64,000 nt of DNA from an uncultured delta proteobacterium (lineage in GTDB: Bacteria > Myxococcota_A > Polyangia > Polyangiales > Polyangiaceae), in contig CAVQUB010000015.1 in assembly GCA_963716725.1 (NCBI GenBank), positions 416,001-480,000 of the forward strand, written 5' to 3'. The position numbers and the translations under genes are program-made. This document shows, in pieces, positions 15,444 to 54,670 of this stretch. The notes beneath the pieces were generated by a model. It did no database searches and was not told the DNA's origin. It saw nothing but the letters and a program-made list of their open reading frames with translations. The stretch's first letter is position 1. The number at the start of each line of letters is the position of its first letter.

Positions 15444-15803
15444 ATGGCCTACCGGGACTCGGGCTCGCAGCTGCTCTCCAAGGTCCTCGAACTCGAGGCG
15501 CACCTCGACGGTCTGCGGCCGCGCATCGAAGCCCTCGAGAGCGCCGTGAGCCGACTCGAAGTGCGCGCCGCGATGGCGCCGATCCCCGGGCAACGCGACC
15601 ACGGCGGTGATCTCTCGGTAGCCGTTGCGCAGAACGAAATCCGCGACCAACACGTCGCCAAGCAGGTGGGGCATCTGGCACTACGAGTGAAGTCTCTCGA
15701 ACAACGGCTGGGCGCTGAACCGCCGCCGGCACGGGATCACGATGACCTGCGGGCGCTGGTCGACGAAGAGCTGGCCCTGGGCCCGCCGCATCGGCGGCGG
15801 TGA
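15444..15803 (+). CDS. hypothetical coiled-coil protein
   Basis: 119-aa ORF with heptad pattern (LLSKVLELEAHLDGLRPRIEALESAVSRLE). Confidence 0.65.
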   Translation: MAYRDSGSQLLSKVLELEAHLDGLRPRIEALESAVSRLEVRAAMAPIPGQRDHGGDLSVAVAQNEIRDQHVAKQVGHLALRVKSLEQRLGAEPPPARDHDDLRALVDEELALGPPHRRR

Positions 15804-16007
15804 CACTTCAGGATCTGTCGAACAAAGGGTGATGGATGGATGGCAGCGACTGCGGCGGCGGCCATTCGTACGGGTCGCTGCGCGTCGCCGACGTGATCCA
15901 TCGGCCGGCGGGGCACGGCCCGTGCGGGAGACCGGCTCAGGTCGTCGTGGTGGTTGGGAGTGTCGAGGCGGCTGGCGTGTGGAAGGTCGGCTGCCGTCGA
16001 CGCTGCG

Positions 16008-16594
16008 TCAGCCGAGCAGCTTTGGGGCGTGCCGCAGGAGGTTGGAAGAGATGGCGTTGAGCAAGATCACGCAAGTGATCTTGGCCGCGCCGCGGACGAG
16101 CACCTGGGTGATGCCGTGATGGGTCTTCTGGTGATCCGCGTGCCGTCCTGCGCCACCAGATCGAGCGACAGGAGCCCCTTGTGCCTCAGCGACGCGAGGA
16201 TGTCGGTCATCAACTGGTCGAGCGCCTCGCCGTGGTCGACGCGAAACGACGACAGCGTGTGATGGCTCACCTTCAGGTCCCCGATGATCCAGCGATACGC
16301 ATCGTCGCTGCCGGTCAGGCGCTCGATCTCAGGCGCGCCGCCGACGGCCTGCGAAATGGCGTACAGCCAGAGCACCAGCTTCATTCGCGGTGACAGCGTC
16401 TTGCGCCCGACTGTGCCCTCCACCGCCTTCACACCGTCGAGAAACGCGCCGAGGTCCAGCGTGCCCACCACGTTCCAAAGCACGCGCGCCGGGTGCGTCG
16501 GCGCAAGCGCCTCCTCCGGCAGCTCGAATCGGATCACGCACTGGCTCCGCTGCGGCTCTTTGACTCGTGGCTTGCCACCGCGCTCGTCGTTCAT
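16008..16594 (-). pseudogene. IS1182-family transposase, internally deleted
   Basis: N-terminal DUF772-like region (HPARVLW, LVLWLYA, IERLT...YRWI...HHTLSSFR) up to DGTRI, joined out of frame at ~16133 to the C-terminal tail KTHHGITQVLVRGAAKITCVILL...NLL. Confidence 0.85.
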
Positions 16595-16637
16595 GCCTAC
16601 GGCACAGGAGCCAGCCGATTTCCATTTCCGGAGACTT

Positions 16638-17960
16638 TCATTCTTGGGTCTCCTCACATCTTCGTGGATGCGGGGAGTAGCCACCGTCGGGGAGGCCGCG
16701 CCGGCGAGTCGGGTCTTCGCCTGCACCAGGGGCTCCGGGGACGCCGGCGCTCCCTCGGCATCGCGCAGGCGACACGGTGGGGGTGAGCTCGGCGAGCGCC
16801 GCCCTGAGGAGCGGCTCGAGCCCGGGCTCGACGCCTCGAGCGCGCGCTTGCTCGACCGCGCGGCGAGCCTTCGCAACGCGAAAGCCGAGCCGTACCAGTG
16901 CGGCCTGGATCTTCTCTGAGCTCTCGTCCCGCTCGGTCGGCGTGTCCGGACCTGGCTTCTTCTCGCTCGCTTCAGCGATCTTCTTCCGGATCTGATCTTC
17001 GCCGAAGACTTCTCGTGCGCGCAGGGCGTTGTGCGATGAACACAGGAGAGAGAGGTTGTCCACGGTGGCCGGACCGCCGAGCGCGTGCGGCTCGATGTGC
17101 TCGACGGTGACGAAGCGCCGCTCCGAGCAGCGCCGGCCCTCGCTGTCGAGGTAAGTGCACTGCCCGCCATCCCGCTTCCAGACGACGCGGGCGACCTCCA
17201 CGGGGACATGCCGCGAGCCTGGCTCGATCGCGCGTCGCTTGCGCGGCTTGCCCGCGCCGAAGCGGCGCTTCGTCTCGGCCTCGAGCAGCGCCTCGATGGC
17301 GCGCTCGAACAGCGCGGCGAGATCCCCGCTGGGGATGGCGTGGCCCAGGAGGTTCTGGGCCTTCACGAGCTTGTCGTGGAGCGCGGCGCTGGCGGTGAAT
17401 TCGACCCGGTAGCTGGACGCGGAGAGCGGCTGCACTCGGGGCTTCGGAGCCGGCGCGGGCGCGGGCTCCGTGCACGCGCCGGGCGCCGCGGTGGAAGGAC
17501 CATGCTCGAGCATGATCGCTGGACAGCCGGGCAAGGGCGTCACGCTCGGCAGAACGTCCGACCGAGGAAATGAGCGGGCCAGCAAACACTCGAGGTCACG
17601 CCGAGACTTGCCCCGAGCTTCGGCGAGCAGGGCATCGGCGTTCTCCAAGGTCAGCCGCCCCGACAAAAGGAACAGGCCGGTCAGGTGGATTCGCCCGCTC
17701 CGGAGCTCGTCCAGGGCCTGGGGCAGGCGCTGGCAGAGCCGGGCCACGCCGACCCGCACCTGGGCCTCGTTCTCGGAGTAGCCGAGCCGCTCGGTGCAAT
17801 ACGAGGAGAGCGATGAGCACGCCGCCGCTGTGTACAAGCGGCGGCGGTCGAGCTCGCAGAGGTACGCGATGAGCTCGGCGGTGGCTTCGCGTTCGAGAGC
17901 CCGAAGGCTGGGCAAACGCGCGAGGAGAGCCTGGTTGTCGAGAGAGTCGAGCGCGAACAT
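16638..17960 (-). CDS. HNH endonuclease with helical (DUF222-like) N-terminus and RuvA-C-like tail
   Basis: VWKRDGGQC...RC...VEHIEPHALGG...DNLSLLCSSHN HNH/Zn motif; tail ALVRLGFRVAKARRAV...LLRAALAEL. Confidence 0.88.
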   Translation of the reverse strand: MFALDSLDNQALLARLPSLRALEREATAELIAYLCELDRRRLYTAAACSSLSSYCTERLGYSENEAQVRVGVARLCQRLPQALDELRSGRIHLTGLFLLSGRLTLENADALLAEARGKSRRDLECLLARSFPRSDVLPSVTPLPGCPAIMLEHGPSTAAPGACTEPAPAPAPKPRVQPLSASSYRVEFTASAALHDKLVKAQNLLGHAIPSGDLAALFERAIEALLEAETKRRFGAGKPRKRRAIEPGSRHVPVEVARVVWKRDGGQCTYLDSEGRRCSERRFVTVEHIEPHALGGPATVDNLSLLCSSHNALRAREVFGEDQIRKKIAEASEKKPGPDTPTERDESSEKIQAALVRLGFRVAKARRAVEQARARGVEPGLEPLLRAALAELTPTVSPARCRGSAGVPGAPGAGEDPTRRRGLPDGGYSPHPRRCEETQE

Positions 17961-18518
17961 GTCTCGGCATACCACGAGGATTTTCCGGTCCCGCCGCGGC
18001 CACCGAGAGCGACGAACGCAGAGCTCGACGCGTCGAAAGTCATCCGAGAGCCAGAGCGCCGTCGTGGATCATCCTCGCGCTCGCACGCGGCAATTTTCGA
18101 ACGAAGCGTCATCCCCGCGCGTCGTGCGTTCAGAAACCTGTCCACCGAAATCGTGCGAGAAGCGTTCTTTTTCGATTCGCAGCCAGCTGAAGCGTGCGCC
18201 AGAACCACGGTGCTTGCACACCCCCCACACAGAACCAAGCAAAGGGTCGTGCACGGATTGCCGTCGGTGGGCTTGGCAGCGGCAGCGTCGTGGGTGTGGC
18301 GGCGCGCACGTGAAGCGAAGGTCTCCGGCTCCTGCCTGCGCTCGTCCACATCACGCGCATGCGCGGCTTCCTCGATGCGTGCGGGACGATTGCCGTCGCC
18401 GCAGTCGTAATTGATCGTGAACGCGTCGCTTCTTGCGCCCGTCCGGCCCGACTACCGAGCAAGACTGGCTTCAGACGCCCACGAACATGTCAGGAGAGCC
18501 TCATTTTTCGACAGATCT

Positions 18519-20084
18519 TCAGCCGTAGCGGTCGCGGCCCATCCGCGCGCCGAGCACCGATTGGTCGAATAGATCTCCGGCGAGGGTCTCGATGACCTCC
18601 CGGAGTTCGACCTCGTCGAGCCAACGTGCGGGCAGCGCGGTGGTGCCGTGCGCGGCGCCGAGCAGGCTTCCCACCAAGCTGCCGGTGCTGTCGCTGTCGC
18701 CTCCGTGAGCCACCGCCCGCCACAGCGTCTCGGCGACTGCGTCGCTCGTGAGCGCGCATGAGAGCGCGATCGCCAGCGCGCTCTCGCCCGTCCAGCCGCC
18801 GCCGAAGGACTCGATGTCAGCCGCGCTCGGCGGCCCGCCCATCGACAGCTCCTTGGCCCGAGCCACGAAGCTCTGGGTCTCTTCGGCGCTGAACTCACAG
18901 GCCAGCAGCGCGTCTGCCGCGTCCATCGCTTCGCGCAACTCGCCGCCGCGGGAGAGATCGTGGATCAACGCGGCGAAGTATCCGGCCGACAGGTAGCCGC
19001 TCGGGTGGCCATGGGTGAGTGCGCCGGCGTCTCGACCGAGCTCGAAGGCGACGTCGCGCGAAGCTGCTGCCAGACCAATCGGGGCCGAGCGCATGATCGC
19101 ACCGCAGCCCTTGCTGTCGTTGGCGCGAGCGTTGACACTGAAACGCGCGCTGCCCCGAGCCCGGGCGTTCAGGGCCGAGAGACAGGTGTTGCCGGGGGCC
19201 CGTCGGGCATGCAGCCGCTCCACGGAAGTGAGCCAGCCTCCGACCGGCGGCGAGGTCGCGACTTGGGTGGCGAGCCAGCGCAGATAGGCTTGCTCGATGC
19301 GGTCGAGGGCGTCCCTGGGATCGTCCGCCACGATCAGGCCTTCGGCGGTGAACAACGTCATTTGCGTGTCGTCGGACACCAGCGCCGGCGGCGAGTCGGA
19401 GTAGGCCAGGGGGGCAGGCGCCGTCGGACCCCAGCGCGTCACGATGGAGTGGGCGTTGTCGAACTCGACGGGATAGCCCAGCGCATCCCCGATGGCGCCC
19501 CCGAGCAGGCAGCCTTCGAATCGAGTGAAAGGGACTGGCAACGCTGGGCGCTCCGCGTCGGGTAGCGCGTGGACCAGGTCGAGCTGTTCGCTCGTCTCGA
19601 TGGCGCCGGGGCGTACCTGGCGCACGGCGGCGACGGCTTGCTCGGCGCTGAGGCCGCGCGCTCGCAGGCAGGCGGCGACCACCACTCCGCTGCGTCCGAG
19701 GCCGCCTCGGCAGTGGACCGCCACGTTGTGTCCCTTCGCAGCCGAGTCGATGATGGCGCGAACCAGCTCGTCGAGATCCGATCGAGATCCTGGCACCGAG
19801 GCGTCAACGACGGGAAGTTCACGGAAAACCAGGCCAAAGCTGGCGGCGCGTTCGGGCAGCGCGGCCATGCCGAGTCGCCCGCGCTCGTCGGGCTCCATCA
19901 ACGAGATCAAGTGATCGACGCGATGGACCTCACGCAGCCGCCTCAGATCTTCGTCGAGATCGCGTTGCCAGCGCCCGTCGCATTTTCCTGGTCCAATCGT
20001 GATGCCAATGCGGCCGGCGAGACCGGTGAGGTGGCCGGGGACGAAGGCGACCCGGATCGGGCTCTGGATCGAGGTGACCCCCAT
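18519..20084 (-). CDS. fusion of CDKN3-like dual-specificity phosphatase and ADP-ribosylglycohydrolase
   Basis: HCRGGLGRS (CX5R) P-loop; GCLLGGAIGDALG, SDDTQMT, THGHP, GGDSDSTG ARH motifs. Confidence 0.9.
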   Translation of the reverse strand: MGVTSIQSPIRVAFVPGHLTGLAGRIGITIGPGKCDGRWQRDLDEDLRRLREVHRVDHLISLMEPDERGRLGMAALPERAASFGLVFRELPVVDASVPGSRSDLDELVRAIIDSAAKGHNVAVHCRGGLGRSGVVVAACLRARGLSAEQAVAAVRQVRPGAIETSEQLDLVHALPDAERPALPVPFTRFEGCLLGGAIGDALGYPVEFDNAHSIVTRWGPTAPAPLAYSDSPPALVSDDTQMTLFTAEGLIVADDPRDALDRIEQAYLRWLATQVATSPPVGGWLTSVERLHARRAPGNTCLSALNARARGSARFSVNARANDSKGCGAIMRSAPIGLAAASRDVAFELGRDAGALTHGHPSGYLSAGYFAALIHDLSRGGELREAMDAADALLACEFSAEETQSFVARAKELSMGGPPSAADIESFGGGWTGESALAIALSCALTSDAVAETLWRAVAHGGDSDSTGSLVGSLLGAAHGTTALPARWLDEVELREVIETLAGDLFDQSVLGARMGRDRYG

Positions 20085-53423: not shown

Positions 53424-54670
53424 CCGGCGACGTGCAGACTCAGCAGATCGCCGTGGTTGGAGACCACGAACGCGCGGCTGCCGTGAGCCGCCGGCGTGTG
53501 CGACGACCCGTCGACCATGTGGATGCCGTCGATGACGCTGCCGTCCAGCGGCGACAGCAGAAACACGCCCAGCTTGCTGGTGTTGACCAGGAGCGCGCCG
53601 CGGATCGGAACCGGTGCGGAGATGCCGCCGTCCGGCAGCGACCGACGCCACTCGTCACGGCCCGTCTCGGGATCCAGCGCCCACAGTCCGGTGGTCCCGG
53701 TCGCCGCGAGCAGCAGCTTCTTCTCCGGCACTTTTGGGCCACCGTCCCGGGCTGCGTGCGCCGGCTCGGTCCAGAGCGTGAGCTCGCTGACGCCCTCGAC
53801 CGCGGGATTCGACCAAATGGGCGTCCCACTGTCGGCGTCGAGGGCCCAGACGCCTCCCGCGTAGCTGCCGACGTAGACCACGGCGCCCGCTTCGATGGTG
53901 TCGGCGACCGGGGTCGTGTCCACGTCCAGGTAGGTCGGGATCTCTCCCTGACGTTGCTCGGCTTCCGCGGCGAGATCCACGGGTTGCCAGATCTCATCGC
54001 CGGTCTTGGTGTCGAAAGCCGTGACCGTCCCGTCGCTGAAGCCCGCGAAGACCTTGCCGCGCCAGACCAGCGGTCCCGAGTAGCCGGCGACCTCCATGCC
54101 GAGTGCCGGCGTCCGGTGCTGGCTCCAGACCAGCTTGCCGGTCTTGGATTCGAGGGCGACGACCGTGTCGTTGGCGTTGACCGCGTAGATCACGCCGCGA
54201 TCGAGGACCGGGCGGCGGGCAACCTCGGCGTTGGTCGAGAAGCGCCAGAGCAGCTCTCCTGTCGCCGCTTTGACCTTGTAGAGTGCGCCGTCGTTCGAGC
54301 CGAAATACACGACGTCTTCGACAGAGTCGTAGAGCGGCGCGCACTGCACGAATCCCAGAGTCTCGAAGCGCCAGAGCACCTCACCGGTCACGGCGCGAAT
54401 CGCGTACAGCCCGCGATCGCTCGAGCCGACGAAGAGCCGGCGGCCCTTCGGATCGATCTCCGGCTGGCCGCGTTCGTAGGGCTCGCCCACCCGGCGGCTC
54501 TCGGCGACGATCTGCCGCTTGTAGACCAAGCTCAGCGATCCGCTCGGCCGGTACTTCCATAAGGGCAGCTCGGGGTTCGCTCCGGCCCGCAGCGACTCAC
54601 AGCCCGCCACAGCCGTCGCCAGCGTGACCGCGGCCAAGCCTGCGCTGATCGCTTGCCGGAGCAACCTCAC
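53408..54670 (-). CDS. bamB: PQQ-type beta-propeller lipoprotein, BamB-like
   Basis: lipobox VAGC; repeated TGEVLWRF/TGKLVWS Trp-docking motifs; LDVDTTPV; downstream of a YfgM-like gene. Confidence 0.75.
   Translation of the reverse strand: MRLLRQAISAGLAAVTLATAVAGCESLRAGANPELPLWKYRPSGSLSLVYKRQIVAESRRVGEPYERGQPEIDPKGRRLFVGSSDRGLYAIRAVTGEVLWRFETLGFVQCAPLYDSVEDVVYFGSNDGALYKVKAATGELLWRFSTNAEVARRPVLDRGVIYAVNANDTVVALESKTGKLVWSQHRTPALGMEVAGYSGPLVWRGKVFAGFSDGTVTAFDTKTGDEIWQPVDLAAEAEQRQGEIPTYLDVDTTPVADTIEAGAVVYVGSYAGGVWALDADSGTPIWSNPAVEGVSELTLWTEPAHAARDGGPKVPEKKLLLAATGTTGLWALDPETGRDEWRRSLPDGGISAPVPIRGALLVNTSKLGVFLLSPLDGSVIDGIHMVDGSSHTPAAHGSRAFVVSNHGDLLSLHVAGPLGR

Follow-up and report, generated by a model that had tools for sequence, protein, structure and literature searches.

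Probable nesting of an HNH nuclease module in an IS1182-type insertion sequence of a Polyangiaceae bacterium

Introduction

Insertion sequences (IS) of the IS1182 family, as described in ISfinder, usually hold a transposase alone between their ends. Transposons of the IS200/IS605/IS607 type carry a TnpB or IscB nuclease beside the transposase. A role of TnpB in element retention or copying is established, and these nucleases have reshaped views of transposon persistence and yielded genome-editing tools; so far they are tied to IS200/605/607 elements and to RNA guides. Here we analyze an IS1182-type element, IS-A, in a 64,000-nucleotide stretch of DNA from an uncultured delta proteobacterium of the Polyangiaceae (assembly GCA_963716725.1, contig CAVQUB010000015.1, positions 416,001 to 480,000; the whole stretch is called the window). 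The usual transposase-only state is broken in this element by an HNH nuclease block of approximately 1.8 kb, which lies between the left end and the transposase start codon.

Two statements of different strength are made about this locus. We consider it highly probable that the window holds a transposase-deleted IS-A with a foreign block of leader and HNH gene, of about 1.8 kb, in its left gap. For the whole explanation, a non-autonomous IS1182 element with a nested, site-specific and recombination-coupled nuclease cassette, we estimate a probability of about 50%.

Results

The window element is a transposase-deleted IS1182 derivative

Direct reading of the sequence bore out the boundaries of the original prediction, which had been made from the letters of the window alone. 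Terminal inverted repeats of 16 nucleotides (nt), identical at 14 of 16 positions and perfect over the first 11 nt, enclose 2706 bp (window 15812-18517) and are flanked by a TTCAG direct repeat (Table 1). The predicted order on the minus strand was also recovered, with the transposase remnant resolved into two: inverted repeat, leader, HNH open reading frame (ORF), N-terminal transposase remnant, C-terminal transposase remnant, about 200 nt, and inverted repeat. A 3-nt duplication of TCA in a CTCAG-like target is the reading that is consistent across plain IS elements (two in genome G129 and one in G001) and seven copies of a sister family, B, described below. Under the TCA reading the element is one base longer at each end; the window copy fits TCA and TTCAG equally.

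By its transposase, its ends and its target duplication the window element is an IS1182 derivative, and it departs from the usual IS1182 by its cargo. The N-terminal remnant matches positions 2-147 of the 488 positions of model NF033551 (E 3.7e-30), and truncation alone keeps it under the full-length cut-off of that model. All five IS-A copies of the genome, the window copy included, have lost the DDE core, so the window copy cannot move by itself and is a non-autonomous derivative.

Related copies in the same genome and empty sites

The genome to which the window belongs (G000; 7.9 Mb in 35 contigs) holds five IS-A copies, all with HNH sequence. A second full copy has the same ends and 98% identity. 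The copy on contig C6 is 3344 bp long, with about 340 extra leader bases, a frameshifted HNH gene and a longer transposase remnant, the protein of which is 68% identical to that of the plain IS of G001. The copy on C11 is partial, and the copy on C4 is interrupted by an insertion of approximately 1.5 kb (G000:C4:158785-160297). No intact A-type transposase was found in the assembly, which is 84% complete.

The same genome harbors seven copies of family B (97-99.9% identical, 3.4-4.8 kb) and one further copy that is broken. A B copy is typically about 3.4 kb long. Its ends are akin to the window element's, the number of 27-nt repeats in its leader varies, and an HNH gene and a transposase follow. 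Their HNH protein is 54-60% identical to that of the window. The B transposase (424 residues) scores 335.7 bits against an IS1182 model cut-off of 270 and is intact in four of the seven copies, the other three being split by frameshifts or by a 640-bp repeat. The HNH frame is open in all seven. TCAG stands on both sides of every one of these copies, bar one mutated right end. Family B is the autonomous form of the HNH-bearing IS1182 composite.

Further copies and autonomous versions, both named as checks of the original prediction, were found (the second full IS-A copy and the four B copies with intact transposase). Its central proposal, that HNH gene and leader lie within one set of IS1182 ends and move together, agrees with the presence of HNH sequence in 5/5 A copies and 7/7 B copies, a distribution that speaks against one-off nesting. 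No module-free copy of either IS1182 lineage was detected in the genome.

The empty site expected from the boundaries is present in the same-genus genome G028, in which both flanking genes abut with nothing between them; at 71-81% identity of the flanks, the uncertainty in the junction is a few bases. Single metagenome contigs span both junctions of the filled site in two studies (X1 and X6), and in a third (X5) a contig spans the right junction only. Among the contigs of four DNA runs none joins across the whole element, hence no empty-site form was seen there, and the few other joints in these runs are unrelated to the element boundaries or have short sides of 22-30 letters. For expression, no RNA dataset holding the element was found among 24 runs. 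The composite moves as one unit by its IS ends, duplicating TCA or TTCAG in a CTCAG-like target.

Two other insertions were seen in the B copies. One copy is split by a sequence of approximately 3.2 kb (G000:C13:58999-62260). The repeat of about 640 bp that interrupts the transposase of another (L112, G000:C21 ~53705-54345) resembles a miniature inverted-repeat transposable element (MITE) and occurs, in part as shorter pieces of about 130 bp and 510 bp, at some 40 places of the genome with 93-99.8% identity.

The HNH block appears nested in insertion sequences of two families

Plain IS1182 elements with similar ends were found in G129 (1597 bp), G315 (1718 bp) and G001 (about 1.44 kb). They have only some 70-120 nt between the left end and the start codon, which leaves no room for the HNH block. 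The transposase of the nearest plain relative scores 274 bits against the IS1182 cut-off of 270. Relatives of tnpB were present in 18 of 383 genomes of the taxonomic family (E up to 1e-40). Seventeen genomes besides our own contributed 22 such loci, and an HNH gene lies upstream in two, both from the same-genus genome G157; about ten of the remaining loci had at least 1.4 kb of upstream sequence for inspection. The claim of rare pairing is independent of the one locus among the 22 that belongs to an unpublished genome (G292). Co-occurrence of this HNH family with IS1182 transposases holds inside the genome of the window, where every tnpA- or tnpB-like match adjoins an HNH gene, and is rare outside it.

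In a tree of 16 transposase rows (a quick search with no bootstrap) the nearest row to tnpA is the plain G001 element (68% amino acid identity over 308 columns), and a branch with 98% SH-aLRT support stands between tnpA and the tnpB clade. The HNH-bearing IS1182 transposases appear from this tree to form no single clade.

The block recurs in front of transposases of the ISAs1 family. In the near-complete same-genus genome G156 an ISAs1-family element (transposase 91.3 bits, cut-off 70) occupies 18 places, three with a full-length transposase and six sharing one internal deletion, and an HNH gene lies directly upstream of the transposase in 15 of the 17 places that could be assessed. In the plain copy L230 the left-end motif is joined straight to sequence 17 nt before the start codon, a junction that defines an insertion of approximately 1.9 kb in the filled copies; in L220 the HNH ORF is lost and the leader is kept. 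A metagenome-assembled genome (MAG) of the Polyangiaceae carries the same block upstream of an ISAs1-family transposase at L043, and its locus L041 retains a 14-codon stub of the same transposase start. In the genome of the window, the HNH sequence of the C11 copy is 93% DNA-identical to that of the window and is paired with an ISAs1-type remnant.

These comparisons also place the limits of the block. The first 48 nt or so of the window element, on the minus strand, are the IS1182 left end. At position 49 begins leader sequence homologous to the left end of the G156 ISAs1-type HNH element (score 67), so the IS-A block seems to be derived from an ISAs1-type element; the right limit was set where homology with the C11 copy ends. 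No right end of an ISAs1-type element was detected inside IS-A (score 30; shuffle mean 21.9, maximum 38). Between the B element and the elements L041, L043 and L078 of the Polyangiaceae MAG, homology is confined to the stretch from one inner repeat to the other (B positions 223-1967; these repeats are described below) and stops 20-45 nt before either start codon. The block is always placed in the short stretch that separates the IS left end from the start codon of the transposase. Host elements exist both with and without the cassette at this one fixed position: the ISAs1-type element within G156, and the plain IS1182 of G001 compared with IS-A.

Taken together, the comparisons indicate that the HNH block is a nested module and not a native part of IS1182, and that two IS families, with at least three lineages between them (IS1182-A, IS1182-B and ISAs1-type), hold it in the same position. 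An independent HNH module nested in an IS1182 had been offered originally as the alternative, and it is now the better supported of the two proposals: plain relatives are without the block, the carriers are not one clade, and the block has an ISAs1 context too. In intact B and ISAs1-type copies the transposase is supplied in cis; for copies of the window type it must come in trans.

Nesting could also reflect capture of the HNH protein for the fitness of the IS, as a true accessory factor for transposition or donor-site restoration comparable to TnsA in Tn7 or to TnpB/IscB. The composites are successful (seven near-identical B copies, at least eight identical HNH copies in G156), the genome of the window has kept neither IS1182 lineage in module-free form, and HNH and transposase may share one transcript, as they lie on the same strand with 20-90 nt from the end of the block to the transposase start codon. 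However, plain relatives without HNH are multi-copy and therefore functional (four transposase places in G129, of which two full-length ones were compared end to end, and two copies in G315). The occurrence of one module with two unrelated transposase families fits a single specific partnership poorly, and transposase-less derivatives retain an intact HNH gene. We consider an accessory factor of this kind unlikely.

Eight identical HNH copies of G156 share an insertion of about 80-90 nt near codon 46 (L203:3915-4009), with the frame open from residue ~42 onward; other copies, such as L208, are without the insertion.

The HNH protein has three predicted parts

We propose three parts for the protein: a DNA-binding domain resembling ParB/KorB, an HNH nuclease, and a RuvA-domain-III-like part for which contact with the host RuvB is predicted. 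The Pfam HNH model matches residues 283-314 (24.4 bits, cut-off 21.4), and C268, C278, H288, N302, C307, H310 and N311 are invariant in 12/12 aligned sequences. The RuvA_C model PF07499 scores 24.8 bits against a cut-off of 24. In structural comparison (VIA-align 2) residues 345-395 resemble RuvA domain III with Z 7.7 and a root-mean-square deviation of 1.5 Å over 51 residues at 28% identity, and residues 22-137 resemble the DNA-binding domains of ParB, KorB and Spo0J with Z 6.2-7.1 over 91-102 residues. The AlphaFold model is confident at residues 1-130 (predicted local distance difference test, pLDDT, ~84-95 over residues 11-130) and at residues 345-395. Foldseek gave no match in the PDB at E up to 0.001. 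A contact model of residues 335-400 with the RuvB of the same genome reached 0.69, the best control 0.00; this mark is reached by 116 of 157 solved pairs and by 2 of 215 mismatched pairs. Three runs of the model agree in at least 80% of contacts, with a partner pLDDT of 80. The last 45 residues or so are read-through past the usual C-terminus of the family.

In a protein database search, 378 of 8000 candidates scored as homologues (E up to 0.001). Most have about 400 residues, and those with names are called HNH endonuclease or McrA-like. The second of these labels, used by some database sources, would suit a cargo that benefits the host, for example a restriction-like or anti-phage nuclease spread incidentally by the IS. 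Weak matches point the same way (McrA, PDB 6ghc, E 0.033; for the B protein, one PADLOC type IV restriction model, E 0.0029), and open frames are kept in decayed elements. Against such a cargo, the window protein matched no PADLOC family at E up to 0.01, and neither the occurrence of 8-20 diverging copies in a genome, every one with a conserved leader to itself, nor the constant position in the gap between IS left end and start codon would be expected of it. We regard this explanation as improbable.

All HNH genes of family B have an in-frame insertion of about 30 codons within the HNH motif, placed after the first Cys pair and before the catalytic His (L021:1990-2085). It is absent from every other aligned homologue.

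HNH units in other genomes and their inner inverted repeats

A scan of Myxococcota MAGs, with one genome per species, yielded 77 HNH loci, three of them with IS1182 remnants beside the HNH gene. Of 121 genomes sampled from the taxonomic family, 18 carry members of the HNH family, and each of these gave two or more matches. Within genomes the repeated HNH unit measures approximately 1.6-2.9 kb and its copies are 72-90% alike. In an HNH tree of 55 rows the copies cluster by genome; the IS-linked rows are a well-supported clade of 10, and the window protein branches beside that clade. Unit ends were not definable in SMAG_U333 or in the Betzabe MAG. A scan for downstream transposases covered 176 of the 335 listed ORFs of at least 110 residues (150 ORFs from 26 loci, and 26 long ORFs), with positives only at L033 (IS1182) and L043 (ISAs1).

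In G157 the HNH frame is open in all five loci, and the transposase is partly or wholly deleted in all five. Two of these loci, L029 (2004 bp) and L036 (1751 bp), are insertions from which the transposase is entirely gone. L029 is absent from the matching site of five same-genus genomes, in three of which the flanks abut and in two of which there is a gap of 65-215 nt; L036 is absent from the matching site of four, one of which, G156, has some 680 nt of unexamined sequence there. Both were considered as IS-free modules and rejected, since ends of the IS1182-B type bound both of them; in kind they do not differ from the window element. One IS-B derivative of G157 lies 12 nt downstream of a tRNA gene (L033:4290-4405).

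Inverted repeats inside the element flank the HNH gene in B (47 nt), in G157 (82-105 nt) and in one subfamily of G383 (148-322 nt, five long-arm elements). In the window copy the inner right repeat was not detected (alignment score 19, shuffle mean 20.8). All 30 arm places of G383 also hold an HNH gene, and a related genome lacks one G383 unit at the corresponding site. A palindromic MITE colonized by the HNH gene was considered and rejected, as no G383 arm pair without HNH was found (30/30 with HNH). A second, more distant HNH subfamily of G383, 30-34% identical to the B protein, has the same arms of about 240 nt as the closer subfamily (loci L151, L152, L154-L157, L159, L162-L166, L168, L171 and L172).

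With the inner repeats as ends, the HNH protein might be the mobility enzyme of a separate, self-transposing element. The repeats in B, G157 and G383, the constant company of arms and HNH gene in G383 together with the one missing unit, and the homology of B with L041, L043 and L078 from inner repeat to inner repeat are all as this would have it. Yet the inner repeats are convincing in only 9 of 45 tested elements, the two seemingly IS-free units of G157 are bounded by IS1182-B ends, and no target duplication was found at inner-repeat boundaries. To our knowledge no HNH-only transposase is known. We judge this explanation very improbable.

The leader belongs to the module

An alignment of ten leaders, taken from five genomes, has a mean column identity of 66%. 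Their common features are a segment of about 45 nt (in several lineages with an inverted copy immediately past the HNH stop codon), a hairpin, and a conserved run before the start codon. Compared with the C6 copy the window leader is about 340 nt shorter and is missing the 27-nt tandem repeat, with the deletion point near 18375/18376. The leader belongs to the module and is under constraint. No sigma-70-like promoter site was found in 15700-18650, and terminator-like sites there are at chance level.

The 27-nt tandem repeat lies in the loop of the hairpin, and its copy number varies between near-identical B copies. The last 8 nt of the repeat unit differ between families A and B (L021:830-900 on C3; L022 on C6; G000:C4:157623-157881).

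RNA guidance of the nuclease, the leader encoding a guide in the manner of the omega RNA of IscB, had been raised originally and is suggested by a long conserved non-coding leader directly upstream of the HNH gene and by one hairpin with compensatory changes at two pairs, but its probability is very slight: the IscB model NF040563 gave 24 bits against a cut-off of 175, over the HNH segment only (model positions 182-260), Pfam scans of the window and B proteins detected no RuvC domain, Rfam returned at E up to 0.1 in five leader loci only a flanking tRNA and no intron or HEARO-type family, covariation in the ten leaders is weak (RNAalifold term +1.04, which is unfavorable, with 5 of 54 pairs compensated), and the N-terminal domain resembles a protein DNA-binding fold. 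A guide, if there is one, would be of a new RNA family.

Neighboring genes and annotation

The element sits between two convergent genes. The left neighbor has only a weak match to DUF7310, and its orthologue abuts the right flank in G028. Orthologues of the right neighbor were found in three same-genus genomes. This neighbor is a fusion of a dual-specificity phosphatase domain with an ADP-ribosylglycohydrolase domain, and its stop codon is taken from the right copy of the target duplication. All features are collected in Table 1.

Table 1. Features of the window element and its immediate neighbors (window coordinates).
Feature	Position	Strand	Basis or remark
Left flanking gene, coiled-coil ORF of 119 residues	15444..15803	+	Stop codon 4 nt before direct repeat
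Direct repeat TTCAG, left copy	15807..15811		Alternative reading TCA, 15808-15810
Terminal inverted repeat, transposase-distal end of IS-A, GATCTGTCGAACAAAG	15812..15827		Resembles plain IS1182 ends of G129 and G001
IS1182 transposase, C-terminal remnant, ~100 nt	16026..16124	-	69% nt identity to 3' end of the plain L102 transposase gene
IS1182 transposase, N-terminal remnant, ORF of 175 residues (~150 homologous)	16070..16594	-	NF033551 and DUF772
HNH nuclease gene, intact, 440 residues, no internal stops	16638..17960	-	
Nested HNH block (leader, HNH gene, short tail), approximate limits	16685..18469	-	
RuvA domain III-like C-terminal domain, residues 345-395	16776..16928	-	PF07499, VIA-align
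HNH motif region, residues ~260-315	17016..17183	-	Invariant Cys pair, His, Asn, Cys, His-Asn
N-terminal helical domain, residues 22-137, ParB/KorB/Spo0J-like DNA-binding fold	17550..17897	-	AlphaFold, VIA-align
Non-coding leader, ~545 nt	17961..18501	-	No convincing ORF
Conserved hairpin, loop length variable	~18208-18256	-	Compensatory changes at two stem pairs
Homologue of the left inner inverted repeat of the module	18242..18307	-	
Terminal inverted repeat, HNH-proximal (left) end of IS-A, reverse complement GATCTGTCGAAAAATG	18502..18517		Sequence reading
Direct repeat TTCAG, right copy	18518..18522		18519-18521 is the stop codon of the right flanking gene
Right flanking gene, phosphatase and ADP-ribosylglycohydrolase, 521 residues	18519..20084	-	Pfam

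Discussion

A non-autonomous IS1182 element with a nested nuclease cassette is the reading we prefer for the window. The mechanism that we attach to it is put forward tentatively, as less likely than not. The ParB/KorB-like domain would bind, and the HNH domain would cut, a fixed DNA site; the break or junction would then be passed to the RuvB motor of the host, and recombination repair would copy the module. By this route the module may home into IS copies that are free of it, or the IS may be restored at the donor site. Labor would be divided between the two partners, the IS providing movement to new sites and the module its own persistence. Such a mechanism would account for the near-complete occupancy of the IS, for the fixed position, and for open HNH frames beside decaying transposases. 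Retention is asymmetric: in G157 the HNH frame is open in 5/5 loci and the transposase damaged in 5/5, and in family B 7/7 open HNH frames compare with 4/7 intact transposases.

Several observations weigh against this explanation. In other genomes 74 of the 77 loci are without an IS1182 transposase beside the HNH gene, and the unit ends of most of these could not be located, so residence inside an insertion sequence may not hold for every family member. The inner repeats are without an explained role, and the window copy is not among the elements in which they are convincing. Occupancy is incomplete, as the plain L230 and the HNH-less L220 persist in G156. In the ISAs1 context the module extends about 270 nt beyond the left limit that it has in the B context, and with a limit that varies by context one discrete mobile unit with fixed ends is not established. 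At the level of the protein, the Z values of 6.2-7.1 are middling and may reflect merely a common helical arrangement, and the HNH core is poorly predicted (pLDDT below 50). The RuvB score may be explained by solved RuvA-RuvB complexes, and it then speaks for likeness to RuvA domain III and is no proof of binding. The mechanism itself is deduced from the domains of the protein and the distribution of the module; neither a cleavage site nor homing nor an effect on transposition was observed.

A bolder and more doubtful proposal is that the module is a parasite of transposons. It would be a protein-guided, RuvB-recruiting cassette specialized for the gap between IS left end and start codon, which spreads by cutting and repair, switches IS families, outlives the transposases of its vehicles, and is the first protein-only counterpart of TnpB/IscB in DDE transposons. 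What recurs here inside DDE transposons of two families is a different and seemingly protein-guided nuclease, with a domain apparently suited to the RuvB motor. If it does copy itself or retain its carrier, it would be a second, independent solution to transposon persistence, and it would offer a directly testable case of one selfish element living on another.

No description of an HNH nuclease paired with IS1182 was known at the outset, and in the full-text literature, with most subscription journals outside coverage, we likewise found no description of an HNH module borne by IS1182 or ISAs1, or of a fusion of HNH with RuvA domain III. Several described systems are nevertheless close in part. 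With the IS200/IS605/IS607 elements the window element shares a nuclease beside the transposase and a nuclease gene that outlives the transposase in decayed copies, and a role in retention is plausible here as well. It differs from them in that window-type carriers use DDE transposases (IS1182, ISAs1), and in a nuclease that falls below the IscB cut-off, with no RuvC domain detected and no guide-RNA family found. Furthermore, the present module is shared by unrelated IS families and absent from their nearest relatives.

Transporter IS and their non-autonomous derivatives likewise hold extra coding capacity within one pair of IS ends and include internally deleted copies moved in trans. The passenger here is no random host gene but a multi-copy module that recurs at one site across three IS lineages. 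As to the mycobacterial REP13E12/DUF222-HNH repeats, a published article (PMC10589994) lists REP13E12 among the repetitive elements beside insertion sequences in mycobacteria. Like our units these are multi-copy chromosomal repeats with an ORF that ends in an HNH domain. The present proteins end in a RuvA_C-like part, and Pfam scans detected no DUF222 (PF02720) in the window protein at E up to 0.01 or in the B protein at E up to 0.1; by these domain scans the two groups differ. From RuvA of the RuvAB motor the nuclease has a match to domain III over its C-terminal 50 residues, in sequence as well as in fold, and this part is modelled on the same face of RuvB. Unlike in RuvA, domains I and II were not detected, and the domain III-like part is fused to a nuclease.

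The free-standing HNH homing endonuclease genes of phages and organelles offer the other close comparison. Here as there, a single-ORF cassette joins HNH to a separate DNA-binding domain, occupies a fixed position in a host sequence that is also found without the cassette, and conserves the HNH residues. The host sequence in our case is a transposon, the protein has a RuvA-domain-III-like part, a conserved leader of 0.3-0.55 kb precedes the gene, and inverted repeats flank it in some lineages; homing of the present cassette is a proposal. In the way it works, the element is most like the transposons with a persistence nuclease (TnpB/IscB) or like a homing cassette, and by the tests made it is a member of neither.

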